From a candidate division WWE3 bacterium (GTDB lineage Bacteria > Patescibacteriota > WWE3 > UBA101185 > UBA10185): a DNA stretch of 64,000 bases. This document shows positions 4,845 to 56,831 of the stretch, piece by piece. A program made the position numbers and the translations under genes. Position 1 is the stretch's first letter; every line of letters starts with the position of its first letter. The stretch is taken from assembly GCA_014729135.1 (NCBI GenBank), contig WJKK01000001.1, positions 730,919 to 794,918 on the forward strand, given 5' to 3'. The notes beneath the pieces are model-generated. The model was not told the DNA's origin. It saw only the letters and a program-made list of their open reading frames with translations, and ran no database searches.

Positions 4845-6881
4845 ATGTCTCAAACTTTAGAAATACTACTGCATGACGGAATAAACTATCTATTGCCGCT
4901 AAACCTCTTTAATTTCGTAATGTTGGTAACAGGATTACCCCTGGGATTAAAAATCGCAAAAAAAGAAGTAAGCCACATAAGCACAGTTAGTTTAATTTTA
5001 GTAGGATACACAACCTTTGCATTAAATCATTTAAACTCACAACTATTTCCATTTAATAAAAAAACCTTACTTATAATCCTGGCTCTATGGTCAATCACAA
5101 ATGCGATTATTTGTTTTAAAGACAAAAACCTACAGCTAATTAAAACCAAGGCACTCCTAAAATATTCTCTTGCTTTCCTTTTAATAAGCACTTTCCTATA
5201 TCTGCTTAAATCCTTTGAACCGGAAATAAATCACATAGAAAGAACCATGAGCTTGGGAATTTTAAACGCGTTGGAAAAAACAACCAAACTACCTCCTAAT
5301 GATTTTTGGCTGGCAGGAAAGCAGCTTAACTATTATTATTTTGGCCATTTTTTGATAAGTAGCCTGCTAAAGCTAACACAAATACAACCTGTACCCGGAT
5401 TTTATGTAGGAACTATCTGGATGTATACAACCTTTATGCTCCTAACTTACACCACTGCAAAAAACTTATATGAAAAATTCTCCTCCAATAAAAGTGGGCA
5501 AAAAAAAGAGGCGGCACTTATAAGCACTTACTTCGTAACTCTGGGGGGAACACTGTATCCTTTTAGGTGGTTTATAGAGAATGTTATTAGACTGCTGGAA
5601 AAGCAAAAAGCAGTATCTTTTTTGTTTACGGAAGCTATAAGACCCAATAACCATAGACTTCTAGATATTCCACTATATAGCTTTTTATTTCATGAGTTAC
5701 ATGCGCATACTTGGGGGTTTATATTGGGCCTTATGATAATTAATGCTTTAATTCAATTAAAGAGTAGCCACATAAAAAAGGAGTTCGCTAAAATCGCATG
5801 GACAGGGTTCCTATTGGGAATAACTTTTATGACTAATTCTTGGGACACATTAACATTAGGAGTGCTCGTGGGAAGCACAATACTCTTTTACCTGAAGCCT
5901 AGAAAATTCGACCTGCAAACAATAGCAAAAAAAATAACGGGAATACTAGCGGTAATCACAATCGTTCTTATAACAGCACTGCCCTGGAAAAGCACCTTTA
6001 CATCTCCTATAACAGGAATAGCCATTACAGGAAACTCAACACCAATAATGCTATTACTTAGCTACTGGGGAACTTTTTTAGGAACCCTGATCCTGTACTT
6101 AATAGCGCAAATAAAATCAAAAAGGAAAGTTTGGTCCGTAAAGAAACCGGAGATCACTTTTCCACTCGTCATCCTGCTTATAGGAATAGTGCTACTAATC
6201 GCTATAGAAATATTTAGTGTAAAAGACCTTTTGGTAACAGTACAAAACAATGGATTTAACACTTTCTGGAAAACAAGCTTGCAGGTATGGATATGGTTTA
6301 ACCTTTTTACAGGAATCTTCCTAGTAGAGGCCTACAAAAAAACCAAGAACAAAAGGCTCTATGCAATTCTTTTTATGGTACTTATATTTACAACGGCCAA
6401 TTTCAGCGGAAAGATGCTTTTTCAAGGTGTTTTTAAGGATAAAAAGTTCTCCGGAATAAAAAATGGATTAGCCTTTTGGCAGGAAAGTTACCCCCAAGAA
6501 TATGAAATTTACAACTACTTAAAATCCCAAGAAGCGGACTCAAGTTTGGTCATTGCAGAAGCCCCTGGGCAAAGTTACACACATTACAACCTAATGTCGG
6601 CATTCGTAGGAGCCGAATCAGTATTAGGATGGTACACCCACGAGATAACATGGAGAAATGAGCCAACGGAACTTAAAAGGAGGCAAAGGGACTTGTATAA
6701 ACTATATACAAAAGCTTCGGTGGAAGAGGCGAAAAAAATAGTGCAAGACTACAAAATTGACTACATCATTGTTTCCGATAAAGAGAGAGAGACCTACAAG
6801 GATTTAAATGAGAAAACTTTAAGCAGGATAGGGAAAGTAGAATATAAAACCAAGGACATACTGCTTATCAAGGTAATTTAA
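4845..6881 (+). CDS. Large polytopic membrane protein, possible GT-C-type glycosyltransferase (ArnT/YfhO-like)
   Basis: 678 aa with more than 12 predicted TM helices, then a soluble C-terminal domain. No firm catalytic motif recognised. Confidence 0.3.
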   Translation: MSQTLEILLHDGINYLLPLNLFNFVMLVTGLPLGLKIAKKEVSHISTVSLILVGYTTFALNHLNSQLFPFNKKTLLIILALWSITNAIICFKDKNLQLIKTKALLKYSLAFLLISTFLYLLKSFEPEINHIERTMSLGILNALEKTTKLPPNDFWLAGKQLNYYYFGHFLISSLLKLTQIQPVPGFYVGTIWMYTTFMLLTYTTAKNLYEKFSSNKSGQKKEAALISTYFVTLGGTLYPFRWFIENVIRLLEKQKAVSFLFTEAIRPNNHRLLDIPLYSFLFHELHAHTWGFILGLMIINALIQLKSSHIKKEFAKIAWTGFLLGITFMTNSWDTLTLGVLVGSTILFYLKPRKFDLQTIAKKITGILAVITIVLITALPWKSTFTSPITGIAITGNSTPIMLLLSYWGTFLGTLILYLIAQIKSKRKVWSVKKPEITFPLVILLIGIVLLIAIEIFSVKDLLVTVQNNGFNTFWKTSLQVWIWFNLFTGIFLVEAYKKTKNKRLYAILFMVLIFTTANFSGKMLFQGVFKDKKFSGIKNGLAFWQESYPQEYEIYNYLKSQEADSSLVIAEAPGQSYTHYNLMSAFVGAESVLGWYTHEITWRNEPTELKRRQRDLYKLYTKASVEEAKKIVQDYKIDYIIVSDKERETYKDLNEKTLSRIGKVEYKTKDILLIKVI

Positions 6882-7315
6882 GAGGAGGGAGATTCTGTAA
6901 GGGGAAGACAGGTGCCGGAACCATCGCATTTTTCAACCATACCCGCGGTGGAATCGTATTCATAAGTACCCCCATCTGATGCGGGACCAACCACAACAAA
7001 ACTGCTGCCTGAGGGGGAAGAATAAGTGTAAGTGTCGCCCTCTTGGGGAGAGTCATCGGGCCAGCTTGTAACATAGGGGGAGTCGGCTAAAGTTGATTGA
7101 TCGGGATAATAACCTTCTAACAAATAAAACGATTCGGCTGCCTCCGCAAGCTTTTTAACATTAGCAATTCGCACAGAATCGCGCGTTTGATTCCTGTAAA
7201 ACTCTGGCTTTAGGACCGAAAAAACCACTCCGGATAAGATCCCCAAGAGAACTACTACTATAAGAAGCTCTACCAACGTAAAACCTGCCTTTTCTTTTCC
7301 TAAAAAATTCAACAT
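6878..7315 (-). CDS. Type IV pilin-like protein (prepilin leader + GFTLVELL)
   Basis: N-terminus '[24 protein letters not shown]' is a class III signal peptide with Glu at +5. Paralogous to the N-terminal half of 7324..8352. Confidence 0.75.
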   Translation of the reverse strand: MLNFLGKEKAGFTLVELLIVVVLLGILSGVVFSVLKPEFYRNQTRDSVRIANVKKLAEAAESFYLLEGYYPDQSTLADSPYVTSWPDDSPQEGDTYTYSSPSGSSFVVVGPASDGGTYEYDSTAGMVEKCDGSGTCLPLTESPSS

Positions 7316-7323
7316 AATAATTG

Positions 7324-8352
7324 TTACTGAAACACGGGAGTTCCTGTAGCCCCGCCCGATTCAAGGCATTGTGCACCAGAACAGATATAGGGGGAACAGC
7401 AATCACTATCCCCGGAACAATAACCACCCAAGCTCTGGCAAGGCTCCATACATCTATCTGATATACAAACATAACCGGAACAACAGTCTGAATCGTCCGA
7501 ACAGGGATCGTAGTAGCCCTCACATTCCAAGCAAAGGTTCTCATAGCAACTGCTGCCAGTGGAGTCTCCGCAGCACTGAAAGTCATAATCGCAGGAGGCT
7601 CCGGTAGCACCACAGCAATCAGCATCCGCATAGTCGGTATTTCCATCACAGTCATTATCCACACTATCCGAGCAACTCGACTCTGAACCAGTCTGGCAGT
7701 CAGTATCGGCACAATCAACAAAACCGTTGCAATTATTATCAACACCGTCTGAGCAGGAAACCTCAGTATCTCCTTGACAATCCAGGTCGGCGCAGTCAAT
7801 AAGGCCATCGCAATCATTATCCGTACCATCAAAACAGGCAACTTCTATAGGATCGCAACTTGGCGGTGTAGTACCACTACCAGTGCCATCACCGAAATCA
7901 AATGAAGTATCTGTTGCTAAACCTCCAGAAAGACCCTCACAGATCCCTCCTAAACATTCGTATAACTGTCCGGTATCTGAATGATATTCATAAGTCCCTC
8001 CGGATGAATTTGCTACTGAAACCGTAAAAGCACCGGAAGTGTAAGAATAAACATAAGCATCGTCACCAGTGGGAGAGCCGTCTGGCCAGTTTGGTAAATA
8101 GTCAACTGCAGCAAGGGCGGCCTGACTTTCTGGATAGCCTCCTTCTAAATTTGCATACACTTCTGCGGCGTCCGCTAACTTTTTCACGTTGGCTATTCGT
8201 ACAGAATCCCGTGATTGGTTTCGAGCAGCTTCAGGACGTATAACTGTTAAACCAACAGCTGCTAAAATCCCCACTAAAACAACAACAATGAGAAGCTCCA
8301 CCAAAGTAAATCCATACTTTCTATCTTTAATATCTTTTAATAGTACTTGCAT
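7324..8352 (-). CDS. Type IV pilin with C-terminal Cys/Asp-rich calcium-binding-like repeats and knottin-like modules
   Basis: '[22 protein letters not shown]' prepilin N-terminus. C-terminal 3x 'C.DG.DNDCDG..DC.D.DC' and 3x 'C...D.DCC.G..C....C' motifs. Confidence 0.7.
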
Positions 8353-8354
8353 AC

Positions 8355-9218
8355 TTATTCAGCTTCCGGTGTGGCTGCGGGAGCTTCCGATTCTTCCGCA
8401 GAGCCCTCCTCAAGTTCCTCCGGGGGAGTTTCCTCTACAACTATGTAATCCTCGGGAGAAATATCATAATGCCTTAAACTCTTAACCTTCTCTATAAAAG
8501 CGGTGAATTGAGGACTTGCAATATCGAGCTCAATGACCTCGTCGGTTACTGCATCTGCACGCACATCCAAATAGGGGGAAATCAGCTTAAAATTAGCAGA
8601 AAAGCCTGTCGCATCTTCCTGTTCGCTTTTGTTATAGCGGAAATCTTCCACTACAACTAAGCGGGAGGCATTTTCAACCCTTTGCATTAAGGCCAAAAGA
8701 CCTTGACGGGGTCCTAAAGCCTCCAAAGATACGGTCACATTTTCGTAAGAAACATTTTGGGCGCCTCCGGAGGGATCTGAAGAACTTGAGGAACCTACAG
8801 CGGGTACAGCTGAGCTACTCCCTTTGCTGTATGCAAGTTGCTCTACACCTAAAACGGATTCCCTTGCCATCAAATCTACCTGAGCTAGAAGCTCAGGAAC
8901 TGTTGGTTCGGACACTAAAGTCTTGTTTATAAAATCAGAATACTCCCGAACAACTTCTTCTAAATCAACCAGTAAATTAAGCGTGGAAACTTTGGTTTGC
9001 AACTGGCGGGAAAGATGCTGCTTCTCATCTAGGTTCTCTTGGATAAGAGGCATCTCCTGATATTTAGGGAAAAGGACTAAAAAAAGTAACAAGCCGGTAG
9101 CAATAAGCGAGATCAAAGGTATTAAAAAGTTTAACAAAAAGCCAGTCACCTTAGAAAGATCAAAGCCTTTTACATTAAGGCTATCTAAATTAACTTCTTG
9201 ATTTAAATCCAAAGCCAT
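8355..9218 (-). CDS. pilO: Type IV pilus assembly protein PilO-like (with acidic C-terminal tail)
   Basis: Single N-terminal TM plus a coiled-coil, directly downstream of pilM and pilN. Overlaps the pilN stop. Confidence 0.55.
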
Positions 9219-9826
9219 TAAAACCCTTTCTTTAAAGCCTCCCCGTTATAAGTAATGGAAATCACGTAATCTACAGTGGAATCGTTAGAATTTAAGGTCA
9301 CTGAGTTTAGGTAGGCCGTTTTAAAAATTGGAGTTTTTGAAGCACTTGGAGTTGATTCGTTAATAGAAGGATCTAAAACCTCCTGTTTATTTAAGTTAGC
9401 TAAAAATTCAGAAACCAGTAAGTAATTGGAGGCTCTTCCCGACACCGAAAGCTCCGAAGGTCCTTCAAAAGAAAAGGACGTCACCTCCACACCCTCCGGA
9501 ATACGCGAATTAAAATCCGCTAACAAATCCGAATAATACAGTCGAGAATTTAAAATCCCCGACAAAGCCTGATACTTTTTATACAAATTACGTGCCACAA
9601 TTTCCGTTGAAGCCATTCCCTTAATTTCAGAACGCGCCTTCTCAATACGGGATTCCTCCACTTCTATCTGCTTTTTTAAATCAGCTACCTTGAAATAAAA
9701 GTAAGCGCTAACACCGGCAACCAAAACAAACAAAACAATAGAAATAATTGAACTAAACTTAATAGCCTTAGTTTTAAACTGCTCAACTTTTTCTTCTTTT
9801 GTTAGTAAGTTTATGTCTGAATTCAT
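9218..9826 (-). CDS. pilN: Type IV pilus assembly protein PilN-like
   Basis: Short cytoplasmic N-terminus, one TM ('IISIVLFVLVAGVSAYFYF'), a coiled-coil, and the characteristic position after pilM. Confidence 0.55.
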   Translation of the reverse strand: MNSDINLLTKEEKVEQFKTKAIKFSSIISIVLFVLVAGVSAYFYFKVADLKKQIEVEESRIEKARSEIKGMASTEIVARNLYKKYQALSGILNSRLYYSDLLADFNSRIPEGVEVTSFSFEGPSELSVSGRASNYLLVSEFLANLNKQEVLDPSINESTPSASKTPIFKTAYLNSVTLNSNDSTVDYVISITYNGEALKKGF

Positions 9827-9886: not shown

Positions 9887-10954
9887 CTAAGAAACCTTCA
9901 TGGCCAATCCCACAGGAACAGCATAAATAGGGCCTTTCCTATGAAAATCATCCTTAGAAGTATCTACCGAATCCAAATTTAAATTTGTCCAGGGATTAGC
10001 CAGCTCCACCTCCACGTCAAAATTATTCACCATGTATAAAAGTAAACCGGGCATAAGGGCAGTTTCTCCTGAAACAACTATCTTATTTATTCTAACATTT
10101 GGATTGTGTGTCGTAAAAAACACTTTAGACTTTTTAATTTCTGATATAAGCCGATCAAATAAGGGATGCAGGGCCTCATAAACTTTGCCTTCTACTTTGG
10201 ATTTGTCCAGACCGTAGCTATTCTTGTATTCTTTAGCACGAGTCATATCCAAATCCATTTTTTGGGCTAGGCTCTTTGTAAGCGTCAGATCTCCAAGAGG
10301 AATAGTGCGTGTTAAGATCACAAAACCTTTATAGGCCAAAACTATTAGAGTCTCTTTGGGACCAATTTCTATAACTAGCTCTGCCCCGGTAGCATGCATG
10401 TCGCCTCCTAAAGCACGTGTCATGGAAAGGGATTCGGGCTCTAAGGCACGCGGAGTTAGCCCAGCCTCTTTAACGATTTGTATGTATTTTTGAGATACAG
10501 TTTTTTTAGCGGCTACTAGCAAAACGCTTGTTTTATCCTGATCCTCTAGATCCAAGTTCATAACGGCATAACCAAGTGTCACCTCCTCCAAGGGAAGGGG
10601 GATGTACTGTTCGGACTCGTATTTAATAAAGTTATCTAGGTCTTTTTTGCTCATATGAGGAACTTTTATGGTTCTAACAAAGACCTGATCTTGAGGAAGA
10701 CTTACAATTGCATCAGTTGATTCAAAGTTAAAGTCAAAGAGAAACTTTTTTAGCTCTCTAGAATAGTGAGTACGGTTTTCTTCATTTTCTATATCTAAAG
10801 TAAAATTGGGCATCTCATGGGATCCCCAATTTAAGAGTGAGTTTTTGGATTTTTTCTTTTCAACTTCAACAGCACTAAAACCGTTAGTTTTAAGGTGAAG
10901 ACCTAGGGCAGACATATTTATATGATAATGCTTAAGGCTCCTTTTATCAATCAA
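9887..10954 (-). CDS. pilM: Type IV pilus assembly ATPase-fold protein PilM
   Basis: 355 aa with an actin-like fold pattern ('LVIEIGPKETLIVL', 'IVVSGETALMPGL'). First gene of the pilMNO trio. True start may be an internal Met. Confidence 0.65.
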   Translation of the reverse strand: MIDKRSLKHYHINMSALGLHLKTNGFSAVEVEKKKSKNSLLNWGSHEMPNFTLDIENEENRTHYSRELKKFLFDFNFESTDAIVSLPQDQVFVRTIKVPHMSKKDLDNFIKYESEQYIPLPLEEVTLGYAVMNLDLEDQDKTSVLLVAAKKTVSQKYIQIVKEAGLTPRALEPESLSMTRALGGDMHATGAELVIEIGPKETLIVLAYKGFVILTRTIPLGDLTLTKSLAQKMDLDMTRAKEYKNSYGLDKSKVEGKVYEALHPLFDRLISEIKKSKVFFTTHNPNVRINKIVVSGETALMPGLLLYMVNNFDVEVELANPWTNLNLDSVDTSKDDFHRKGPIYAVPVGLAMKVS

Positions 10955-11035: not shown

Positions 11036-11587
11036 TTAGTAGGAACCCCTCACAGTAAAGGTATCGCTTATGTAGTCCTCTGCTGCAAAGATGCTTCCAA
11101 CAGGGGCATTAACTTGAAAGATGTGAAGATTAACATCAACTCTATCGGGAACTCCCGCTGCAGATGTGACCTGAAAACAAGAACCCGCACATTCTACAGC
11201 CACCCCTCTCTCGGCATCTACATCCAAAAGAGATACAGGGGATCCTGTTTGATCCTGCCAAGTAAAAGATGTGGGAGCAGTGGTATTATCCACTTGGTAG
11301 GTTATTCTATAACCATTACGCTTAGTTAAACGCAAAGTTCTATTGTTTCCTGTTGCTTGAGCCGAAACCGAATTTTTGATGTCGTTTTGCAGTTTTAAAA
11401 AGATAAAGTTGGTAATCTGCTCTACTTCGTTAGCTGCTTGAGTTCTAGTATTAGTGCGTACAAGTGTAATTATTATGTCAGTCGACAATCCTATTACAAC
11501 TGATAAAAGGGCCACAGACACTAACAATTCCACAAGTGTAAAACCTTTAGTATTTTTAGTTTGTTTTTTGTTTTTGCTTACAACCAT
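11036..11587 (-). CDS. Minor pilin / pseudopilin (PilW/GspJ-like)
   Basis: '[21 protein letters not shown]' prepilin N-terminus. Confidence 0.6.
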   Translation of the reverse strand: MVVSKNKKQTKNTKGFTLVELLVSVALLSVVIGLSTDIIITLVRTNTRTQAANEVEQITNFIFLKLQNDIKNSVSAQATGNNRTLRLTKRNGYRITYQVDNTTAPTSFTWQDQTGSPVSLLDVDAERGVAVECAGSCFQVTSAAGVPDRVDVNLHIFQVNAPVGSIFAAEDYISDTFTVRGSY

Positions 11588-11593
11588 GAAGTC

Positions 11594-12178
11594 CTAACGA
11601 ACACTCCAATTGGATAACTGCGAGTAATTATGTGTAAATTTTGTTTCTCCACCAATTTCCCAGGTAGAAACGGCTATAACATTAATTACCTCAGTATTTC
11701 CGGAAACTGTTTCAAAGTAAATACAGGAGGTTATACCGTCAGATGCAGCAGGCAAACCTTCAACAAGCGAAATTCCGTCATTAATGTAGCAAGATCCTGC
11801 ATCAGAACAGTCAGTAGTGCAATTTAATCCGGATGCATAAAGATAGAAGTCCTCCCAAGTTGCGGACGTAATGTAGTCATCCCGCAAAGCTCGTGCTCTT
11901 TCAAGCTGTTGATTAGTTAGGCGAGTTCCCTTTACAAGACGCTCATTAACTGTGGAGGTTCTCAGCGTAAAAACTGCTAAGGAAACCATGGCTGTTACAA
12001 TAATTATACCCACCCCTAAAGCTATGATGACTTCCACCAAACCTATCCCTTCCTCCCTTGACTTTTTTGCTAGGCAATTTCCAGGGATTATCCTTGGTTG
12101 AAATACGCCTTCTCTCTCTAAAGAGAGGCGAAAGTGCGTTTGGGACAAAGGATGATCCTTGCAAACCTTTAAGGACAT
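11594..12178 (-). CDS. Minor pilin / pseudopilin (PilV-like)
   Basis: 'EEGIGLVEVIIALGVGIIIVTAMVSL' prepilin-type helix with Glu at +5. Long leader; start uncertain. Confidence 0.5.
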   Translation of the reverse strand: MSLKVCKDHPLSQTHFRLSLEREGVFQPRIIPGNCLAKKSREEGIGLVEVIIALGVGIIIVTAMVSLAVFTLRTSTVNERLVKGTRLTNQQLERARALRDDYITSATWEDFYLYASGLNCTTDCSDAGSCYINDGISLVEGLPAASDGITSCIYFETVSGNTEVINVIAVSTWEIGGETKFTHNYSQLSNWSVR

Positions 12179-12702
12179 GTAACTCCCTCTTCAACTAAAA
12201 GCCCTCCCGGAGTATTTGCCAAAATAGAAACACATTCAGCACCGGTTGCATCGGATTCTCCAATAATTACAAAACAATTAGATCCGTTTGCATCACAGGG
12301 GGTTGCCGGACTCCCTCCTGTTGTGTAAGCGTTTCCTGTAAACATGTCAAAAAGAATAACGTTGGAATTTTTAACCTCAATATCTCCTATTAAGGGATCA
12401 AACGTATCCTCTTTGCTAAAGGAGTCCAAGGCTTCCGAAAACGTGTATAAATCATAGGCATTGGTTCCATCTGCAAATTGAACACCCCAATAACCCACGC
12501 CGGCATCGGCAGATTTTAGGCCACCCAAAGCATTGTTTTGGGCTGAACGAAGGCTATCTTTTAGTTGCGCTGTAGACTGTTTTAAGTTTTGGTTTCTTGT
12601 GTAATTGGTAAATCCGGGAATAGCAGCACCGGCTAGGATTGTTATGAGAGAAACTACAATTAAAAGTTCTACAAAGGTGTAACCATGGACAGATTGTTGC
12701 AT
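12169..12702 (-). CDS. Minor pilin / pseudopilin (FimT/GspH-like)
   Basis: 'VHGYTFVELLIVVSLITILAGAAIP' motif. Start moved to the internal Met so it does not overlap the upstream pilin gene. Confidence 0.55.
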   Translation of the reverse strand: MQQSVHGYTFVELLIVVSLITILAGAAIPGFTNYTRNQNLKQSTAQLKDSLRSAQNNALGGLKSADAGVGYWGVQFADGTNAYDLYTFSEALDSFSKEDTFDPLIGDIEVKNSNVILFDMFTGNAYTTGGSPATPCDANGSNCFVIIGESDATGAECVSILANTPGGLLVEEGVTCP

Positions 12703-12758
12703 GGATTTATGATAGCACAATCTAGGGATAGGGGAGGGGCTAACGGAGAAAAAGGGAT

Positions 12759-13202
12759 TTAGGGATTGGTGACGCCGTAACAGGGATCGTAGTTGTCGGT
12801 AGAGGAACAACCCACGCCATTACCGGAGGAGGTTATTTCTACTTGAGATACTATTGTATAAGTGGAGCCATCAGAGGAGTTGTAAAGGTAAGGAGAGCTT
12901 GCTCCGGAGGGGTCTTGAGGAACGGGATTCATGTAGCTTGATAAAGCAGCAACTCCCGAAATATCTGCCCAGGAATGCGGATTAGGATACACTCGATTGT
13001 CTGCAAAGTACAATTCCAAACCTGCTTGAATACGCTTTAAATCAGCAATTCTTTGCTTGTCACGCGTTTTAGCACGCAACGCCTGTGGATTTAGTACTTG
13101 CAAAACTATACCGGACAAAATTGCAATAATAGAAACCGTTATCATCAGCTCTATTAAAGTAAATCCTTTTTTATTTTTTAGATTTTTAAGTCTTTTTAAC
13201 AT
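12759..13202 (-). CDS. Type IV pilin / pseudopilin
   Basis: 'KKGFTLIELMITVSIIAILSGIV' prepilin N-terminus. Confidence 0.7.
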   Translation of the reverse strand: MLKRLKNLKNKKGFTLIELMITVSIIAILSGIVLQVLNPQALRAKTRDKQRIADLKRIQAGLELYFADNRVYPNPHSWADISGVAALSSYMNPVPQDPSGASSPYLYNSSDGSTYTIVSQVEITSSGNGVGCSSTDNYDPCYGVTNP

Positions 13203-13213
13203 AGGTCACACAA

Positions 13214-13238
13214 CCGCCCCCAAGAGGGGGCAGTTTTT
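13214..13238. terminator. GC-rich hairpin + T-run between major pilin gene and next pilin gene
   Basis: ccgccccc-aaga-gggggcag, then TTTTT on the + strand. An A-run precedes it on the - strand, so it could act in both directions. Confidence 0.4.
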
Positions 13239-13247
13239 ATGATTAAA

Positions 13248-13688
13248 TTAGTCGATCACACAAGTTCCAACAGGAGCTACCTGTGTAGCAGCACCAGTCG
13301 TAGTGTTATAAGTGCACTGGAACGAACAGGTCGGAGAAGCGGCTGCATCTGCCCCTGTAACTGTGATTGTGGGTGCGGAATAGCTGACCGAATAGCTTGA
13401 ACCGGTGGGTGTGCCACTAGGATCATTAACACCAACATCTGAGAGAGTCACACAATCGGTACCGGGAGCCTGCCTGGAAGCAGCACAAGCATGCATGGCT
13501 AAACAAATCTTATCTGTGTTAGCACGCAAAACGGTCTGATTAGCCTTAGTTCTGGTCTCCGCAGGATTAATAACTGAAATAACAACTCCAGCTAAAATAC
13601 CAATAATAACGATAACAATTAAAAGCTCGATAAGTGTGAAACCTTCCTCACGTGAACTCTTTGTCCAAAAATTAAATTTTTTATTCAC
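13248..13688 (-). CDS. Type IV major pilin candidate
   Basis: 'EEGFTLIELLIVIVIIGILAGVV' N-terminus. 146 aa, Cys pair near the C-terminus, followed by a hairpin. First pilin of the operon, after the PilX-like gene. Confidence 0.7.
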   Translation of the reverse strand: MNKKFNFWTKSSREEGFTLIELLIVIVIIGILAGVVISVINPAETRTKANQTVLRANTDKICLAMHACAASRQAPGTDCVTLSDVGVNDPSGTPTGSSYSVSYSAPTITVTGADAAASPTCSFQCTYNTTTGAATQVAPVGTCVID

Positions 13689-14827: not shown

Positions 14828-17800
14828 CTACTCCTCAACTTCCCAAGAAATATCTACTAAACTTAAAAACAGACTTTCAAAGTCGGTTCCTGCTGCCACA
14901 CTATCCATAAGCTGTTTGTGCAAATAATAAGCATAAGCAGGATCATAATGAACGGCAACTCCGGGATACATGTTTCGCAACTCACCCAAGTCGTTGAATG
15001 TACGGTTGCGGTTAAAGTTCATAGTACCTCCTGAAATAAAAGCACCTTCTAAAACTAGCGAAGTGTCTCCCGGGTCGTCAATTTCTTCATTTTCAAATTC
15101 AACAGAGGGGAAGTTTATGTCACCTAGGGCAAAAACAGAGGCTCCTATTGTGACATCAGAGGCATCTCCGGCGGGAACGTCTACACCCAATTCTTCGGAG
15201 AAAGTCACACCTCCATTAACAACGAGCAAAATCTTTCTATTGTCATTACCGCTGTAAAAGGGCTCCTCAAAAGTGATGTCGCCATCAATATAGATCACAA
15301 CCACACCATCAGAAGCAATATCACCGGAATAATCTCCCTCGCCTCCGATGTCTGCTAAAACGTCTTCAAAAGTGGAAGCAGACATGGAATAGACCATTGT
15401 GGGGTCTAAACCGGAAAAGTCTTCTGTAGAACTAATGTCCGCAAACTCCCCACCGGATAAGTCACCGGAGGCAATTGCCAGAAAAAGGGGAGAAGAAGCA
15501 TAGCCGTACTCAGGGGCGGAAGAGATGGCACTATTACTGTCAGAGCTTTCAACGTCAGATAAGTCTCCCGCAGATAGGGCAAAATCATCTGTCATGTAGT
15601 TGTCATAAACTCCGGGGGTTTCGGGGGTAATCATTGTAATAGCACTTCCGGAGTAAACACCTCCATTAACTACGGTAAACCAACCATCTAAAGCGGAGGT
15701 AAGCTCGTAACCTAGATTAATGGTTACATTACCGGGTACTGTGTAAGGTCCTGTGGCTAAAAGCCCCGGCCCTACACTTAAGGTTCCCGGAGTAACACAG
15801 CCCAGCTGAAAGTTTGTGTCTGTTGGGGCATCCAGGTCGTCCAATTCCAGATACATACCTGTAACATCAGAACCAACAGGGAAGGCGTCACTCTGATTAT
15901 TACTACTATATGCTCCTGTACCGGAATCTATACTAAACTCAAAGTTTTGTTGCGGATCAACAGGATCCGGAACTTCTGCGGTCATTGTAAGATCCGGAGA
16001 TGAAGCAAAATAAGCTAAAGTTTCTCCTTCAGCAGGATTGCAGGTAGTAGTGTCAGAAACAGTGGCGTCGAAAATGGTCCCGGAAATTTGCGGATACCGT
16101 AAAGTTACATTTTTGCTACAAGTAACACTAGCCTCACAAGAAGAATCGCTTAGGTTATCTGAAACTTCCAAAGATATAGGGGCGGAAAATCCACAAGAAG
16201 ATTCGTAAAAATTAGGGGCTGTATAAGAAGTGGAAATTTGTCCTGTAGAAACTCCTGAGGCTTGCTCAGGATTAAAAGAACCCAAGCAAGTAAGAGGTGT
16301 GGAACTCCAAGAATAATCCATATTGTAAGTATCGGAAATAGTGGAAGTGTAAAGCTCAGTGTCTCCAAAAAGTACTGTGCCAGAACCACTTATTGCTGTA
16401 CAGGAGGGGGTATCATTTTTTTGGATAGTGGTTCCTGCACAAAAAACCTGGGAACTATCATCACAGTTATCTGCGTAGGCGTGTATATGAACAGTTCCAT
16501 ATCCTGGATGATTCGCCAAGTTTACAGTTGCTTTCCAAGTGTTCCCACCTACATTAGAAGCCGAATACCGTACAATATCATCTTGACCACCTGTAGCCGT
16601 CCAAGTAGGAAATTTCACTGTCTCAGCGTTGGACACATTGTTAATATAAATATCCACTGTTGAATCAGAACCCAAAACGCAATCAACGCCAGAGCCGTCT
16701 TGCGTAACGGTAATGGAACTAGAACCACAAGTTGGAGCGGAACTATAACCACAATCATCTCCGCCGCCGCCACAATCACCGTCTGCAGGAAGACACGCGG
16801 AAATACCCTGACCACCCCCACAAGGGTCTGTTGGAAGCCACCGAGGATCACAGGTAGAATGGCACGTATCGCGTATATCACCGCATGTCCAATCACAGGA
16901 ACAGTTTGGGGGATCTTCTGGATCTTCTGGAGGGTCTTCAGGGTCAGGATTTACCCAATGACAATTCCAAGAGTCGCAGGAATAGGCACGTAAATCGACG
17001 CAACCGCCATAACTGGGCTCATAATAACAAGGATTCTGGCCAGTAGCACAGGTATCACAATAGGGGTCACCCTCCTCGCATTCACAGACAGTAGTACAAG
17101 GGGTGCCCGAACAATAAGCATATCCCCTCTTCAGAACCCCTAAACCCTCCAGGAAACCAATTAAACCACCATTCTTAGAAATATCCACCAAACCAACATC
17201 AGCATTCAAAGCCGTAAAAAACTCCTCGGGAGGAGAGTAATTAGATGAAACGACCTCAAAATCAGACGTCAAATAATCAACGCCCTGATAAAGCAACCCG
17301 CTAAAAATCTTCTCAGCCACAACTTCATTGCTTTGCAAAACAGCAGGCGAAATGCTAACTTCTAAAACAACATCTTCATCCTGCGCCAGAAAATTCAAAC
17401 CCATCTCCACATCTGTCCCCGAAAAAATCTTGGCGGAACTCAAATCATCCGTTAAATAAATCGTCAAAGTTTCAGGTGTAACATATTTCGGTGGAACCTC
17501 AGAGTCATTTTGCAAATACGTCTTGACTTCATCAAGCGAATAGGTGTAACGTGCAGCATTTTCTGTAAAAAAACCTTTAGTGTATAAATAAGCGGAAAAC
17601 TTTTGCTTTCCTGCAGGAGTAAACTCAATTTCAAAATCCTCAATTTGAGACTCTACGCGCACACTATCCTCAAATAAAGAAATATTAGAGTTGTCTCCGG
17701 ATTCCTGTATTTTTGAAAATGGTGAAGGAGTTTCGTCCCGAGAGGGGGATTGATTTGTTTTGGCAGCTCGTGGGGTGTCCTTTAGAAATAGTTTGGAAAT

Positions 17801-17923
17801 TTGTTCTACAGAGAGGGGGAAACTATAAGTGGTTATGGAAAATGTCAAACCTCCAAGCACAAAAATCAATAAAAAGGTCAAAAGGGCTAGAATTTTCAAA
17901 CCTTTAGGCAGTTTCAGCTTCAT
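14828..17923 (-). CDS. Giant (1031 aa) secreted Cys-rich protein, candidate pilus tip adhesin (PilY1-analogous)
   Basis: N-terminal signal/TM 'ILALLTFLLIFVLGGL'. Central cluster of about 40 Cys ('CSGTPCTTVCECEEGDPYCDTCATGQNPCYY...'). 'PEDPPEDPEDPP' linker. First gene of the pilus locus. Confidence 0.35.
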   Translation of the reverse strand: MKLKLPKGLKILALLTFLLIFVLGGLTFSITTYSFPLSVEQISKLFLKDTPRAAKTNQSPSRDETPSPFSKIQESGDNSNISLFEDSVRVESQIEDFEIEFTPAGKQKFSAYLYTKGFFTENAARYTYSLDEVKTYLQNDSEVPPKYVTPETLTIYLTDDLSSAKIFSGTDVEMGLNFLAQDEDVVLEVSISPAVLQSNEVVAEKIFSGLLYQGVDYLTSDFEVVSSNYSPPEEFFTALNADVGLVDISKNGGLIGFLEGLGVLKRGYAYCSGTPCTTVCECEEGDPYCDTCATGQNPCYYEPSYGGCVDLRAYSCDSWNCHWVNPDPEDPPEDPEDPPNCSCDWTCGDIRDTCHSTCDPRWLPTDPCGGGQGISACLPADGDCGGGGDDCGYSSAPTCGSSSITVTQDGSGVDCVLGSDSTVDIYINNVSNAETVKFPTWTATGGQDDIVRYSASNVGGNTWKATVNLANHPGYGTVHIHAYADNCDDSSQVFCAGTTIQKNDTPSCTAISGSGTVLFGDTELYTSTISDTYNMDYSWSSTPLTCLGSFNPEQASGVSTGQISTSYTAPNFYESSCGFSAPISLEVSDNLSDSSCEASVTCSKNVTLRYPQISGTIFDATVSDTTTCNPAEGETLAYFASSPDLTMTAEVPDPVDPQQNFEFSIDSGTGAYSSNNQSDAFPVGSDVTGMYLELDDLDAPTDTNFQLGCVTPGTLSVGPGLLATGPYTVPGNVTINLGYELTSALDGWFTVVNGGVYSGSAITMITPETPGVYDNYMTDDFALSAGDLSDVESSDSNSAISSAPEYGYASSPLFLAIASGDLSGGEFADISSTEDFSGLDPTMVYSMSASTFEDVLADIGGEGDYSGDIASDGVVVIYIDGDITFEEPFYSGNDNRKILLVVNGGVTFSEELGVDVPAGDASDVTIGASVFALGDINFPSVEFENEEIDDPGDTSLVLEGAFISGGTMNFNRNRTFNDLGELRNMYPGVAVHYDPAYAYYLHKQLMDSVAAGTDFESLFLSLVDISWEVEE

Positions 17924-20203: not shown

Positions 20204-21061
20204 TTGAGTCAGGACAACCAATATATTACCGTACAAGAGCTTTGTAACTGTTTAGATATTTCAAAATCCTCCATTTATTATGAAAAGAAGCTTCCCAAAA
20301 AAGACTTGAAGCTAAGTAAGCAAATTATTGATGTAATTAACAAGAATAAGACATATGGTCACAGACGGGTTGCCTTAGAGCTTAACATTAACAAGAAAAG
20401 GGTACTTAGAGTAATGAGGCTATTTAATATCAAGCCCTTAATAACCAGGTCTAAAAAGCCCCGATATAAATATAAGAAGGGAGAGTCTAGATTTGAGAAT
20501 CTAATTAAGACTATATGTCCAATAAGGCCTTATGTAATATTAGCTACTGATTTTACCTATTTGAGGTTTAAAAATTCCTTTTTGTATTTAGCTACTGTAT
20601 TAGACATATATACTAAGGAAATATTGGGTTATGCGGTTTCTACCAGACATACTCAAAACTTAGTATTAGAGGCTGTTAAATATGGATTAAGTAAATGCAA
20701 AACCTTACCTCTTTTTATACATTCTGATGAAGGTAGCGAATACATGTCAGATGCGTACATAAATTATGTACACTCCCAAAATATTGAACTATCAACAAGT
20801 GATATTGCTTCCCCTTGGCAAAACGGATTTAAAGAATCCTTTTATTCCCAATTTAAACTTGATCTGGGTGCAAAGAATCTAAACAGATTTGATACCTTGG
20901 GAGAAGTTGTAGGACATATTTATAAAACAATCTATTATCACAATAACCAAAGAATTCACACGACTATAAAAACACAACCTGTTAAATTTAGAAATCAAGA
21001 ATTAGCTAAATGGTCTGATGTTTGTTGTGATAGATTGGTGTCCAAAAAAATGGGTACTTGA
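20204..21061 (+). CDS. IS3-family transposase OrfB (integrase core, DDE)
   Basis: 'HRRVALEL...VLRVMRLFNIKP', 'ATDFTYL', 'HSDEGSEYMSDAY', 'SPWQNGFKESF' rve-domain motifs. Frame is open back to 20168. TTG start in the track. Confidence 0.75.
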   Translation: MSQDNQYITVQELCNCLDISKSSIYYEKKLPKKDLKLSKQIIDVINKNKTYGHRRVALELNINKKRVLRVMRLFNIKPLITRSKKPRYKYKKGESRFENLIKTICPIRPYVILATDFTYLRFKNSFLYLATVLDIYTKEILGYAVSTRHTQNLVLEAVKYGLSKCKTLPLFIHSDEGSEYMSDAYINYVHSQNIELSTSDIASPWQNGFKESFYSQFKLDLGAKNLNRFDTLGEVVGHIYKTIYYHNNQRIHTTIKTQPVKFRNQELAKWSDVCCDRLVSKKMGT

Positions 21062-21096
21062 CATTTAGACAGAGCATAGCAATTAAGAAGATTGAG

Positions 21097-21173
21097 TGCA
21101 AATTCATTAGATAATTATTTCTGTCATCCAAGCCCTCTTGTTAGATAAAAAATTCAATGCCATCCAAATTTAA
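21097..21173 (+). repeat. Right copy of ~75-bp imperfect direct repeat
   Basis: 'tgcaaattcattagataattatttctgtcatccaagccctcttgttagataaaaaattcaa...aaatttaa', a copy of 18747-18820. Confidence 0.6.
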
Positions 21174-21243
21174 AAGCCTCCGCCCAACACGCGCAGACCA
21201 CCCCATCGAAAACAAAAACCTACCACCATTATGTCTAATCAAA

Positions 21244-21438
21244 TTACTGCTCAACCAAAGTTCCCTTTCTATGAATTTTAAGAAAAAGCTTTTCTGCATC
21301 TTCAAGATATTCTGCAAGAGGCTTAAGACCTACTTCAGCGCGTAATTCATCCACTCTGTCAGGATACTGAAGGGGCATGTGAGGCTCTTTCTCCCACCTT
21401 ATCCGACTAGGACCCATGGAACCTATTCGGGCATACAA
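21244..21438 (-). CDS. Small hypothetical protein (64 aa), divergent from the radical-SAM gene
   Basis: ORF only. No motif. Confidence 0.2.
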   Translation of the reverse strand: MYARIGSMGPSRIRWEKEPHMPLQYPDRVDELRAEVGLKPLAEYLEDAEKLFLKIHRKGTLVEQ

Positions 21439-21472
21439 ACCAAAAACAACTACGGCGAGCGAGATTATCTTG

Positions 21473-21478
21473 TATAAT
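21473..21478 (+). promoter_or_regulatory. TATAAT -10 element with upstream TG, ~40 nt upstream of radical-SAM gene
   Basis: 'cttgTATAATgt', followed by a strong RBS 'aaggaggg' (21505-21512) before the ATG at 21517. Confidence 0.3.
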
Positions 21479-21516
21479 GTCCATAAATTGAAAACCTAAT
21501 ACAAAAGGAGGGAAGG

Positions 21517-22833
21517 ATGTTATACATGTTAAAAACAGACGTGTATTTTGTGCGCGGCGCCTTGAATGGTGCCCTTTTAGATACCCGAAGGGGGAATGTG
21601 TACTCCATAAACGAAAAGGCTTGCCAAGTACTGATGGGCGAGAGGGAAGATAGCGAATATTGGAAACTATTAAGTGACCAGGGACTTTCGGATAGTCCAG
21701 GTTCTATAAAAAGAGCGAAATTTTCAAGAAGAACCCCATGCGAATTAGACTTCGTGTGGTTCGAAATCACCTCTAGCAAATGTAATCAAAGCTGCATTCA
21801 CTGCTACACCGATTCCTCACCACAGACATCTCGTGAGAAACAGAAACACGTAGACACCTTATTAACACATCAGCAATGGCTTCAAGCTATACGGGAAGCC
21901 TATAACCTTGGCTGTAAAAAATGCCAGTTTATTGGAGGGGAACCCTTTCTCTATAGAGGAAAGGGAGGAGAAACTCTGAGAAATCTCGTTTCATATTCTA
22001 GAGACTTGGGATACAACTTCATTGAAGTTTTCACCAACGGATTACTTCTAACTCCCGCGAGAATCGCCTGGCTGAAAGAGTTAGGCGTTCATGTGGCCAT
22101 CTCCTTGTACTCAATGGAGGCGAGCATTCACGACTGTATCACACAAACACCTGGGAGTCAGCGTCAGACAATGTCTGCAATAGAAGAAATGTTGGCTAGA
22201 GATATTCCCTTTCGTGTCGAGACGGTCTTGATGAAACCTAACGAAAAAAGCGTTCCCAGACTTCAAGAAGCAAAGAAAACTTGGGGCGTTGAAAGTACCG
22301 TGGATATCTTGCGTCCTACAGGTCGAGGAGACAAACAACGATTCCAACCGGAATTTGAATACCTAGCTAAACATGGTCTGCAATTGGAACCTGCATTTGT
22401 CATAGATGAACAAACACTGCGACGGAACTTAGGTGGCAATCCCTGTCTCCAAAAACAACTCGTACTTACGGCGTCAGGGGAGGTATTTCCTTGTGTTTTC
22501 GCCAGAGAAACACATCTGGGTAGTATCAAAAAGACTTCCCTGGCAGGTATTATAGAGGAAACTCGCACCCAAGAAATATGGAATGCAACCAAAGACGGCG
22601 TCCTGGTGTGTAAGGACTGTGAGTATAGGTATGTTTGTCAAGACTGCAGGCCCCTCGCAAAAGCAGAGGCACACCCGCGGGGAAATCTCATGTCAGCTCC
22701 TCCACCTCGCTGTACCTACAACCCCTACACAGGGGAGTGGGCCGCTGGACTATGGACACTGGGCAACGAAGCATCTCCCTTCTATGATAGGACCAAGGGA
22801 GAGGAAATACAGCGTCTCCTGCAAATAAAGTAG
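21517..22833 (+). CDS. Radical SAM / SPASM-domain peptide-modifying enzyme with N-terminal RRE-like extension
   Basis: 'CNQSCIHC' is a CX3CX2C motif. 'IGGEPFL' is the SAM-binding glycine motif. The C-terminus has 'CX13GX4C' and 'CKDCEYRYVCQDC' auxiliary-cluster (SPASM) patterns. An ~75-aa N-terminal domain precedes the rSAM core. Confidence 0.8.
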   Translation: MLYMLKTDVYFVRGALNGALLDTRRGNVYSINEKACQVLMGEREDSEYWKLLSDQGLSDSPGSIKRAKFSRRTPCELDFVWFEITSSKCNQSCIHCYTDSSPQTSREKQKHVDTLLTHQQWLQAIREAYNLGCKKCQFIGGEPFLYRGKGGETLRNLVSYSRDLGYNFIEVFTNGLLLTPARIAWLKELGVHVAISLYSMEASIHDCITQTPGSQRQTMSAIEEMLARDIPFRVETVLMKPNEKSVPRLQEAKKTWGVESTVDILRPTGRGDKQRFQPEFEYLAKHGLQLEPAFVIDEQTLRRNLGGNPCLQKQLVLTASGEVFPCVFARETHLGSIKKTSLAGIIEETRTQEIWNATKDGVLVCKDCEYRYVCQDCRPLAKAEAHPRGNLMSAPPPRCTYNPYTGEWAAGLWTLGNEASPFYDRTKGEEIQRLLQIK

Positions 22834-26576: not shown

Positions 26577-27410
26577 TTATAAGTACCAATTTAAGAACAA
26601 GTCTCCTGCTACAAAAACCAGAAGACTGCCTAGAATCATGAAAGGGCCAAAGGCAATCTTATCCTTCATTCCTTTTTTGCCTAGGGCCATCAATCCCAAA
26701 CTTACAACAGATCCTAAAACAAAAGAAGAGAAAATTGCAATAATATTGTAGGGAAAGCGGTTAAAAAGTCCTATTAAAAAAGCAAGGCGAACATCGCCAA
26801 AACCCATCCCTTTACCCTTAGTAATAGCATGTAAAAACCAAAAGAAAAGACCTAAAGAGACTGCAGAAACAACGTCAGACGATTTAAAACCAAACACCAC
26901 GTAGAAAACTCCAACCACTGCCAAACCTGTAAAAATAGCTTCATTAGGAATAATTTGATATTTGGTGTCTGCTAAAAAGATAACGATATATACCGAAAAG
27001 ATTAGTAAAAAATAGGCAAATAGCAAAACCGGATAGATATTGAAGCCCAAACCAAAAGCAGAACCCAGGGATCGAACTAAACCCGCATTTAATCCGGAAT
27101 GCAAAGGGGCGCCACCAAAAACTCCTGATGAAACTGCAGCCAACAAGAATATAACTCCTGTTAAAACCTCCGATAGGGGATAGGCCACTGATAAACGCTC
27201 GCTGCAGTAGCGACATTTCCCCTTGTTAAACACAAAAGAAAAAACGGGAATTAAATCGGCAACTTTTAAAACGTTGTCGCAAAAATCGCAATGAGACCGA
27301 CCAAATAAAATGGATTCTCCTGAAACCAAGCGATCAGCAACTAGATTTAAAAAGGACCCCACAAAAAGCCCCATGACAAAAACAAAAAAGTAGTAAAAGT
27401 ATATCTCCAT
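26577..27410 (-). CDS. pilD: Prepilin peptidase PilD (A24 family)
   Basis: 'CDFCDNVLKVADLIPVFSF...CRYCSERLS' tetracysteine motif and 'GMGFGDVRLAFLIGLF' catalytic Asp region. Start taken at the internal Met. Confidence 0.8.
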   Translation of the reverse strand: MEIYFYYFFVFVMGLFVGSFLNLVADRLVSGESILFGRSHCDFCDNVLKVADLIPVFSFVFNKGKCRYCSERLSVAYPLSEVLTGVIFLLAAVSSGVFGGAPLHSGLNAGLVRSLGSAFGLGFNIYPVLLFAYFLLIFSVYIVIFLADTKYQIIPNEAIFTGLAVVGVFYVVFGFKSSDVVSAVSLGLFFWFLHAITKGKGMGFGDVRLAFLIGLFNRFPYNIIAIFSSFVLGSVVSLGLMALGKKGMKDKIAFGPFMILGSLLVFVAGDLFLNWYL

Positions 27411-27481
27411 TAAAGTGTTCTCAATTTTAAAGTAGTCTCGGATAGCGTTTAAAACTTGGCATCCCCATATCAAAGAACCGG

Positions 27482-27991
27482 CTACAAACTCAAGTCAGTC
27501 CCAATCTCATATAAACCGGGAGAAACTCCACCATCAAGACGCATTTTGTTAGCATTATCCGCCGACTCCAAAGGCACGCTCAACTTAAACTTTTGAGTTT
27601 GACCATTTGCCACAAATTCATAAACATAAGGCTTCTCGTTAAGGGAATCTATGGGCAATTGATTCAAATATTTACGCAATCCGGGAGTTTCCTCCATAAC
27701 ATTAAACTTTACCCAGCCTTTTCCATCCACTTTAAAAGAACCGGTTAAAGTGGTGCAACTATCACAATCTGAAGTATCCTCCAAGGTAATAAGCTCTTCT
27801 GCCAAGGAAAGCTGCAAGGCCTTGTTAAGTTCATCCAAATCCTGGATTCTTTCGGCATCTCGACTTTTTGCAAGAATTGCCTGCGGATCTATGGCTACAA
27901 AGAGTATTCCGGTTATTGCCACCGCAACTCCTAAAACAATTATTAATTCGGGAAGTGTGAAGCCGGTCTTTTGGCAGGTTTTTTTATTCAT
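27482..27991 (-). CDS. Type IV pilin / pseudopilin
   Basis: 'KTGFTLPELIIVLGVAVAITGILFVAI'. Start taken at the internal Met (MNKKTCQ). Confidence 0.65.
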   Translation of the reverse strand: MNKKTCQKTGFTLPELIIVLGVAVAITGILFVAIDPQAILAKSRDAERIQDLDELNKALQLSLAEELITLEDTSDCDSCTTLTGSFKVDGKGWVKFNVMEETPGLRKYLNQLPIDSLNEKPYVYEFVANGQTQKFKLSVPLESADNANKMRLDGGVSPGLYEIGTDLSL

Positions 27992-28034
27992 ACACCTAGT
28001 ATAACAAAGTAGAAAAGTAGGACGGAAAAGAGTT

Positions 28035-28101
28035 AGGCTGTGTTTCTTTCGAACGAATTTTGGCGTACTCGCCAACCTGAGAGAGAAAGAACATACAGCC
28101 T
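28035..28101. repeat. Long imperfect hairpin between pilC and pilin gene
   Basis: aggctgtgtttctttc (28035-28050) / gaaagaacatacagcct (28085-28101), with a 34-nt loop. Confidence 0.4.
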
Positions 28102-50351: not shown

Positions 50352-50693
50352 TCAAGTATCATACTCAATGGGGCTTATTAGGGATTTTATGTAGACAAGA
50401 AGCAACAGCAAAAATCCAAGGTTTACAGAAATGTCGGCGTAGTTAAACGAGAAAATTCCAAAAAAGGAAAGCGGATCAGCCACACAACCCTCCACCAAAC
50501 GATGATACAAATTATAAGAACCTCCCAAAACCAGAAAAACCACTCCCAAAACCCCCAAGACTTTCCCCCTCTCTAACAATCCGGAAACATAAAATGAGTA
50601 AACAAACAACCCAAAAACAAGGACAATAAAAAAAACATAAACTTCTATAGAAATAAAGTTTGAAAATGGAAAACTGCAGTTATAAGTCATCAA
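50352..50693 (-). CDS. Small membrane protein, hypothetical
   Basis: 113 aa, three hydrophobic helices. ATGA overlap with the upstream gene. Confidence 0.3.
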   Translation of the reverse strand: MMTYNCSFPFSNFISIEVYVFFIVLVFGLFVYSFYVSGLLERGKVLGVLGVVFLVLGGSYNLYHRLVEGCVADPLSFFGIFSFNYADISVNLGFLLLLLVYIKSLISPIEYDT

Positions 50694-56780: not shown

Positions 56781-56831
56781 TTTAGATGTTTTGTACAGTT
56801 TAGTCGGTTAGGCGAAAAACCGGCTAAACCT

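Follow-up and report, generated by a model that had tools for sequence, protein, structure and literature searches.

Introduction

Type IV pilins that carry an additional grafted module, the modular pilins, have been described as widespread, with 264 architectures and 1,219 proteins in Dataset S1 of Raynaud et al. (2021, PMC8179133), and they are common among candidate phyla radiation (CPR) bacteria (PMC8179133). In Streptococcus sanguinis, PilB carries a von Willebrand factor A (vWA) module and PilC a lectin module, and these pilins act as adhesins (PMC8179133), while in the Saccharibacteria strain TM7x efficient binding to the host depends on PilX2, a pilin with an accessory domain (PMC11623550). 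In this article, I will discuss a 64,000-nucleotide stretch of DNA (the window, given here at its full length) from an uncultured, ultra-small bacterium of candidate division WWE3 (assembly GCA_014729135.1, contig WJKK01000001.1, positions 730,919 to 794,918 of the forward strand) and, within it, the open reading frame (ORF) at 7324..8352 on the minus strand, which on its sequence is a modular type IV pilin, and which probably combines a calcium-stiffened stalk with a trivalent knottin head for host or surface binding, the function being the part that I infer.

Like the S. sanguinis type of modular pilin (PMC8179133), the WWE3 protein has a class III signal, a small pilin module, a short linker, a grafted module and a type IV pilus (T4P) locus around its gene; what differs is the grafted part, which here consists of acidic double-disulfide repeats and three knots of the inhibitor cystine knot (ICK) type. 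The Toxin_12 family (IPR011696) is found in 0 of the 264 architectures of Dataset S1, and the PF11617-type motif (IPR021655) in three of its proteins, each time after a FecR domain. TM7x PilX1 and PilX2 (PMC11623550) are likewise CPR pilins with extra C-terminal domains, but have no detectable sequence relationship to the WWE3 pilin. The best profile matches of its knottin region are tandem-ICK toxins and secreted cysteine-rich repeat proteins (SCREPs; Xt3a 7RZ3, Hi1a 2N8F, DkTx; PMC6262176, PMC9885460), which share the head-to-tail ICK modules, the very short linkers and the C-C-CC-C-C order of cysteines, but are secreted two-module animal venom peptides, whereas the WWE3 protein has three modules covalently attached to a bacterial pilin. 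Full-text literature searches for cystine knot and pilin together returned nothing relevant. Every part of the protein belongs to a known family and the modular-pilin principle is known as well; as far as the sequence can tell, the combination of pilin, acidic repeat and knottin is new in the literature searched, and it is that of one gene in one metagenome-assembled genome (MAG).

A pilin with a cysteine-rich C-terminal half

The reading frame runs uninterrupted through 342 codons, with 0 frameshifts and 0 internal stops, where the initial annotation had wondered about a pseudogenised fusion, and the product is annotated at NCBI, on a contig of 864 kb, as a 'prepilin-type N-terminal cleavage/methylation domain-containing protein'. 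The gene, its parts and the adjoining paralogue are as follows, with the basis of each assignment in brackets (pLDDT, predicted local distance difference test score; AF2, AlphaFold2):

7324..8352, minus strand: the gene as a whole, encoding a modular type IV pilin of 342 aa (MBD3366423.1 at NCBI; MAG of candidate division WWE3)
8311..8352, minus strand: class III leader peptide, residues 1-14, last residue Gly14, with the prepilin peptidase site between G and F (sequence, PF07963, TIGR02532, F15 alignment)
8242..8310, minus strand: hydrophobic N-terminal helix alpha1-N, residues 15-37, 23 aa, Glu at +5 (profiles, single-sequence AF2 model, solved-pilin alignment)
7939..8241, minus strand: globular pilin module, residues 38-138, closing with a short disulfide loop C133-x4-C138 (55% identity to the neighbouring pilin; PilE/PilA matches)
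7858..7938, minus strand: Gly/Ser/Thr/Asp-rich linker, residues 139-165 (composition; pLDDT 30-40 in the single-sequence model)
7777..7857, minus strand: acidic repeat R1, residues 166-192, with C166, C173, C181, C187 and C192 (NF033662; 7PLP alignment)
7696..7776, minus strand: acidic repeat R2, residues 193-219, with C200, C208, C214 and C219 (NF033662; 7PLP comparison)
7615..7695, minus strand: acidic repeat R3, residues 220-246, with C227, C235 and C246 (NF033662, sequence)
7525..7614, minus strand: ICK-like module K1, residues 247-276, with C247, C254, C260, C261, C269 and C274, the Cys4-Cys5 loop being 7 residues long
7444..7524, minus strand: ICK-like module K2, residues 277-303, with C277, C284, C290, C291, C296 and C301 (Toxin_12 on K2 alone)
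7360..7443, minus strand: ICK-like module K3, residues 304-331, with C305, C312, C318, C319, C324 and C329
7324..7359, minus strand: C-terminal tail, residues 332-342 (11 aa), and stop codon (pLDDT <50)
6878..7315, minus strand: tandem paralogue, a plain pilin of 145 aa with leader and disulfide loop as in the 342-aa pilin, without the Cys-rich tail (profiles, pairwise alignment)

The prepilin N-terminus is as canonical as the initial annotation had it: a short charged leader of 14 residues ends at G14, the sequence after the cut is FTLVE from F15 onwards with Glu (E19) at +5, and both PF07963 (30.7 bits, cutoff 21.2) and TIGR02532 (28.1 bits, cutoff 16.3) match. In the comparison with PDB sequences, F15 pairs with residue 1 of the mature form of major pilins of known structure, among them PilE (2HI2, E=2e-6), PilA (9LAA, over residues 10-140) and S. 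sanguinis PilE1 (8PFB), the alignments to these three covering residues 15-80 and at most 10-140. As candidate elements of the lollipop fold, in which a long alpha1 helix packs on a beta-sheet, a single-sequence AF2 model gives the pilin part a helix at 17-37 and strands at 99-140 at low confidence (pLDDT 40-85), and at full length it is uninformative for the C-terminal half (pLDDT 30-40). The globular domain was also rightly said to be shared with the neighbouring pilin, which is 55% identical to residues 4-142 over 141 aa (E=1e-31), lies 8 nt downstream and has its C-terminus just past the common two-Cys loop; this 145-aa paralogue is a candidate major pilin. The 342-aa protein contains 32 Cys, C133 and C138 being the pair of the pilin loop, and its succession of pilin (1-138), linker (139-165), NF033662 repeats and Toxin_12-type modules is that of a modular pilin sensu Raynaud et al. 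(2021).

Three tandem knottin-like modules

K1 to K3 follow the framework C-x6-C-x5-CC-x4-C-x4-C, with loops of 6/5/0/4/4 (6/5/0/7/4 in K1), and the six cysteines in the order C-C-CC-C-C with loops in the ICK range that characterise this fold are present three times over. The initial annotation had described three modules with five cysteines each; the modules are there, each with six, the first (C247, C277 and C305) having been omitted from the strings it gave, and with six per module rather than five, the match to the ICK framework that it had recognised in the spacing is stronger than was realised at the time. When residues 246-331 were shuffled 200,000 times and searched with my own regular expression for the six-Cys framework, 24% of the shuffles contained one match and 0.24% two, and none of them three, and neither this motif nor that of the acidic repeats occurs anywhere else within the 64-kb window. 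Residues 244-342 scanned alone pass the cutoff of Toxin_12 (PF07740; 25.5 bits, cutoff 21), as does K2 by itself (24.3 bits), and the precomputed database annotation of the pilin includes PF07740. The same residues also pass Dickkopf_N (PF04706; 28.4 bits, cutoff 25) at profile positions 20-51 of 51, overlapping the Toxin_12 match; a complete Dickkopf cysteine-rich domain 1 (CRD1; 51 positions, 10 Cys) was rejected, the match being to the last 32 of the 51 profile positions only, a common sub-motif. Among PDB sequences, a single-sequence query found Mu-theraphotoxin-Hhn2b (E=0.026, aligned at K2), and a profile found Xt3a (E=3e-5, spanning two consecutive modules), Dkk4 (1e-4) and Hi1a, a toxin of the double-knot kind (4e-3), besides some 35 ICK toxins of spiders at E<1. 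In alignment with the tandem six-Cys modules of other prokaryotic proteins, 18 of the 18 Cys of K1-K3 are in register.

Structure prediction, to which the initial annotation had looked for a knot or its absence, yields a knot-type fold for residues 244-342. This model, made by AF2 for these residues only and from a multiple sequence alignment of 29 rows, has a mean pLDDT of 77.5 (75-86 in the modules, about 83-86 in K2) and shows one topology in K1-K3, a short turn ahead of the CC pair, with Cys5 and Cys6 on a beta-hairpin. When the PDB was searched with Foldseek, the top ranks went to Dkk4 and Draxin, and most of the remaining list consisted of knottins, with TM-scores of 0.72 for SGTx1 (target-normalised; root-mean-square deviation 1.1 A over 30 columns), 0.73 for EETI-II, 0.73 for hanatoxin and 0.75 for GXIA; JZTX-XI, the conotoxin GXIA, Pn3a and huwentoxin-I are further knottin matches, and DkTx and Hi1a are among the fold and sequence matches taken together. 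The predicted fold of K1-K3 is of ICK type and superposable on solved knottins, with a putative I-IV/II-V/III-VI connectivity in which the third bond would thread the ring.

With ion-channel toxins and squash trypsin inhibitors as the nearest relatives in both sequence and fold, and with the avidity that tandem knots confer in DkTx and Hi1a, one could picture the knottin head as a pilus-presented effector, a toxin-like agent that would block a host membrane channel or transporter, or one that would inhibit proteases, working either on contact or once released. I consider this rather unlikely: the similarity does not go beyond the Cys scaffold and some Gly/Asp positions, with no functional loop kept, lipoproteins and surface proteins with a membrane anchor, without assigned function, make up most of the prokaryotic relatives, and the linkers between modules, 2-3 residues long (LE, MEP), contain no dibasic or other obvious processing site, which makes release of the head unlikely.

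Acidic repeats and putative calcium ligands

The three acidic repeats reported in the initial annotation recur with a period of 27 residues and the motif C-x-D-G/S-x-D-N-D/N-C-D/N-G-x-x-D-C-A-D-x-D-C, and the NCBIfam model NF033662 (acidic double-disulfide repeat) finds them in 3 stretches of the 342-aa pilin at 48.5 bits (cutoff 41); the related Pfam family PF11617 stays under its cutoff of 27, with 13.9 for the full-length protein and 23.5 for the acidic region alone. R1 and R2 have four Cys each and R3 three, with the extra C166 ahead of R1. Their likening to thrombospondin type-3 (TSP3) repeats holds in one sense and fails in another. As a family assignment it had to be rejected: the Pfam profile TSP_3 (PF02412) has no match at E<=1 on the whole protein and none at E<=10 on residues 160-246, and membership therefore fails. 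As an indirect resemblance it stands, by way of the sole solved sequence relative of the acidic repeats, the teneurin-4 C-rich domain (7PLP), which aligns to R1 with an E-value of just 6e-4 over 24 residues. In that crystal three Ca2+ are bound via E835, D840, D843, N844, D845, D847, D851, D854 and D856, with sites I and II coordinated in a TSP type-3-like manner and site III like that of a low-density lipoprotein (LDL) receptor A module (PMC9058538).

The likeness to teneurin-4 extends over the acidic motif ExxCxDxxDNDxDGxxDCxDxDC, and all nine side-chain Ca ligands E835...D856 are kept in R1 (9/9), as E170, D175, D178, N179, D180, D182, D186, D189 and D191. In R2, Asn replaces Asp at two of the nine teneurin-type ligand positions; in R3 all are kept, and the Cys equivalent to C852 (the third Cys) has become Tyr241. 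In teneurin-4 the acidic motif is moreover followed by 'CC' and a conotoxin-like stretch, which is mirrored at the R3-K1 junction of the pilin. The differences are that teneurin-4 has a single eukaryotic domain of 6 Cys paired 1-3, 2-5 and 4-6 (PMC9058538), whereas the pilin has three tandem repeats of the four-Cys kind, with an extra Cys where teneurin has Gly846. Conservation of the ligands relative to teneurin-4 makes R1-R3 candidate binders of Ca2+, and TSP3-like calcium binding is a fair functional analogy under the wrong family name.

The pilus locus and its extracytoplasmic cysteines

The ATG of the 342-aa pilin lies 2 nt after the stop codon of pilO, the gene is the last of a pilMNO operon, and the other pilus genes of the window are on the same strand:

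9887-10954, minus strand: pilM (PilM_2, 135.7 bits)
9218-9826, minus strand: pilN (PilN, 39.5 bits)
8355-9218, minus strand: pilO-like gene (PilO, weak, 17 bits)
11036..13688, minus strand: five pilin-like (minor pilin) genes (N_methyl matches, G[F/I][T/S]L.E motifs)
26577-27473, minus strand: PilD prepilin peptidase
27482-28075, minus strand: further pilin (GFTLPE motif)
28137-29339, minus strand: PilC
29352-30410, minus strand: PilT
30420-32192, minus strand: PilB (Pfam matches of the genes from PilD to PilB: A24_N_bact/Peptidase_A24, T2SSF, T2SSE, MshEN)

With PilB, PilC, PilD and PilT, PilM, PilN and PilO and the pilins all in the window, a complete retractile T4P system is thus present, and the gene is encoded together with a prepilin peptidase and assembly machinery, as a type IV pilin should be.

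The exported proteins of this locus (6878-32192) have an even number of extracytoplasmic Cys in 10 of 10 cases (2, 2, 2, 2, 4, 4, 6, 6, 30 and 32), where Cys ahead of the prepilin motif were discounted in three over-long ORF calls, and PilM, PilN, PilO, PilT and PilC have 0 Cys. Such parity suggests an organism that makes extracytoplasmic disulfides, and oxidative folding of the pilin cassette is plausible.

A different use of these cysteines deserves consideration, namely that the tail, rich in Asp and Cys, binds metal or serves as a redox domain, sequestering Cu, Zn, Fe or Ca with its thiols mostly reduced in an anaerobic habitat. Residues 246-342 are 20% Cys, the Pfam relative PF11617 is named a putative metal-binding motif, and no oxidoreductase gene came up in the window scans. 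CPR bacteria are also not known to have the quinones used by the classical DsbB/VKOR oxidation pathways. This reading is nevertheless improbable, as the Cys spacing is exactly that of the ICK framework, three times and in alignment with disulfide-bonded toxins, the even counts just given include a two-Cys loop kept in both paralogous pilins, and the teneurin relative holds Ca by Asp side chains with its Cys in disulfides (PMC9058538).

Other genes of the window may be noted for completeness. Between the minor-pilin cluster and the remaining T4P genes lies a gene (14828-17923, minus strand) for a Cys-rich surface protein of 1031 aa with an N-terminal hydrophobic anchor, 30 Cys, a GBS_Bsp-like repeat and a dense Cys/Asp/Pro-rich stretch at about residues 270-400, which may be a PilY1-like tip or surface adhesin. 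The assembly genes are split from the minor pilins by an insertion sequence (IS)-type integrase (rve, 20204-21061) and a radical SAM/SPASM enzyme (21517-22833), together 20204-22833 on the plus strand, and a DUF2298 polytopic membrane protein (4845-6881, plus strand) is convergent with the plain pilin gene, with a 4-nt overlap at the 3' end of the latter. Further away are a 942-aa protein with a HerA/TrwB-type ATPase region and a C-terminal S1 RNA-binding domain (45359-48187, minus strand), a 380-aa ORF with an N-terminal match to Lgt (prolipoprotein diacylglyceryl transferase) and a C-terminal DksA/TraR zinc finger (50690-51832, minus strand), either an unusual fusion or two genes joined by the ORF caller, and an AbiEii toxin / AbiEi antitoxin pair (55998-57479, minus strand).

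Relatives and origin of the cassette

No full-length relative was found in a collection of 5.8 billion proteins, every match covering the acidic repeats only, and a search with the pilin module returned the paralogue and two weak pilins and nothing else. With the whole protein as the query, species-representative genomes and metagenome contigs gave acidic-repeat proteins only, neither the pilin module nor the architecture having a relative there, an exact-sequence look-up of the protein among contigs came back empty, and phage and plasmid collections gave no tblastn match. A singleton taken from a MAG may arouse the suspicion that it is a pseudogene, a fusion without function or a chimera of the assembly, and the gene is indeed a singleton in all databases searched; I hold this to be very improbable indeed, given the unbroken frame with 30 of 30 cassette Cys in register, a module GC and GC3 (GC content at third codon positions) in the host gene range, the tight operonic position and the length of the contig.

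The knottin region does have relatives. Residues 244-342, searched exhaustively by HMMER in 1.84 billion representative proteins, have 34 matches, about a dozen of which contain tandem arrays of the same six-Cys module with a period of 28-30 residues; carriers of such arrays include a Polyangiales protein, a protein of a Bilamarchaeaceae (Micrarchaeia) archaeon to which NCBI gives the name 'dickkopf-related protein' and several proteins whose N-termini look, by eye, like those of lipoproteins, and the prokaryotic six-Cys relatives pass Pfam Toxin_12, Conotoxin_I2 or Dickkopf_N. The arrays (MFO0609567.1 of the Polyangiales, HLC68883.1 of the Bilamarchaeaceae, P0047, P0048, P0052, P0053) resemble the pilin in their consensus C.x.G..C...xDCC.g..C..g.C with that same period, and differ from it in that their anchor is a lipoprotein signal or a transmembrane helix at the N-terminus rather than a pilin; the motif G-F-T-L-x-E is found in none of the prokaryotic tandem six-Cys array proteins. 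At two archaeal loci (L023 8001-9425 and L024 3129-4568), proteins that have 7-12 ICK-like modules in tandem and a transmembrane anchor at the N-terminus are flanked by archaeal housekeeping genes, with no pilus genes nearby, and one of the clusters is named 'dickkopf-related protein', Bilamarchaeaceae (Micrarchaeia). An unrelated pilin of 429 aa (P0038; L001 198-1487, on a 1.9-kb contig) has Asp/Cys-rich acidic repeats after its pilin module and no knots. In a Phycisphaerales MAG (CP070744.1; L011 4222-6318), a 698-aa protein has a C-terminal acidic repeat followed directly by one six-Cys ICK-like module, and the order of acidic repeat and then knot therefore exists outside pilins. Acidic repeat and ICK module may thus be a pre-existing composite cassette, and their order echoes the teneurin C-rich domain.

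The initial annotation had read the paralogue without a Cys-rich half as a sign of recent modular gain, and that proposal is unsupported: the two paralogues share just 55% identity, the DNA of the modules has diverged, and their GC3 of 0.37-0.46 is host-like, being reported as within the range of the host genes (0.32-0.45). Horizontal acquisition was considered and rejected on this same GC3, and recent internal duplication on the extensive differences between the modules in DNA. With no related genome at hand, gain and loss of the modules are not separable, and nothing indicates that a gain was recent.

Proposed function

How might such a pilin work? PilD would cut after Gly14, and the alpha1-N helix together with the PilA/PilE-like globular module would insert the protein into the pilus built by the adjacent PilB/C/M/N/O machinery. 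[quoted passage not shown] This head would then most likely bind a surface ligand (on a host, a partner cell or a substrate) with avidity, and PilT-driven retraction would draw the cells together. Precedents for pilus-borne binding modules are the S. sanguinis modular pilins (PMC8179133) and TM7x PilX2 (PMC11623550), and the central proposal of the initial annotation, a candidate pilus-displayed binding domain, gains support from the pilin signal, the repeats and the ICK modules, with the binding itself argued from these analogies.

Several observations weigh against this proposal. The 342-aa pilin is a singleton, and conservation therefore cannot argue for its function; scored at full length on Toxin_12, the protein reaches 19.3, under the cutoff of 21; and C166 and C235 are without an obvious disulfide partner. 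The Foldseek E-values of the knottin model are not significant (best 0.013, none <=0.001, for domains that are tiny), and the AlphaFold model may echo a learned ICK prior. Finally, no Dsb, thioredoxin or VKOR genes were found in Pfam scans of most window ORFs of at least 120 aa. As a side remark on the two cysteines just mentioned, C166 and C235 could make a long-range or intermolecular disulfide.

The cassette might also be mainly structural, a rigid, protease-resistant decoration or spacer without a specific ligand, which might shield the pilus against proteases, phages or grazers, or promote the bundling of pili or the formation of biofilms through Ca2+ bridges. Knottins are very stable. 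The acidic Ca motif of teneurin stabilises a conformation and does not bind a partner (PMC9058538), and the pilin module is of the major-pilin type, with which the protein could decorate the shaft. On the other hand, the accessory modules of characterised modular pilins bind ligands (PMC8179133, PMC11623550), and a plain paralogue adjoins the gene, which suggests that the tail adds a distinct function; I would call the structural reading unlikely. Effector, metal-binding tail, structural decoration and artefact all rank below the modular pilin with calcium-stiffened stalk and knottin head.

A bolder thought is that ultra-small episymbionts use ICK knots as host-targeting warheads, and that the protein discussed here is a toxin tethered to a retractable pilus, or a receptor-specific harpoon, directed at a channel or transporter of the host envelope, with prokaryotic ICK modules homologous to the animal toxins. 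This is a long shot, but if it were true, the presence of the same modules on surface proteins of archaea of the Micrarchaeia class (DPANN-type) and of myxobacteria would speak for a prokaryotic ICK lineage that is homologous, and not merely convergent, with the ICK toxins of animals.

Outlook

The way in which simple pili gain diverse functions is currently explained by modular pilins, and the leading candidates for host recognition by CPR bacteria are their pili. A calcium-stiffened stalk with three knottins on a pilin would add disulfide-rich mini-proteins to the repertoire of pilus-borne modules, and would do so with knottins, a class so far studied almost wholly in animal venoms and plants. 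The cassette of about 165 aa is a concrete, small and expressible target through which to approach oxidative folding in a CPR organism, the host receptor of an uncultured WWE3 bacterium and the question of a shared ancestry of prokaryotic and eukaryotic ICK domains.

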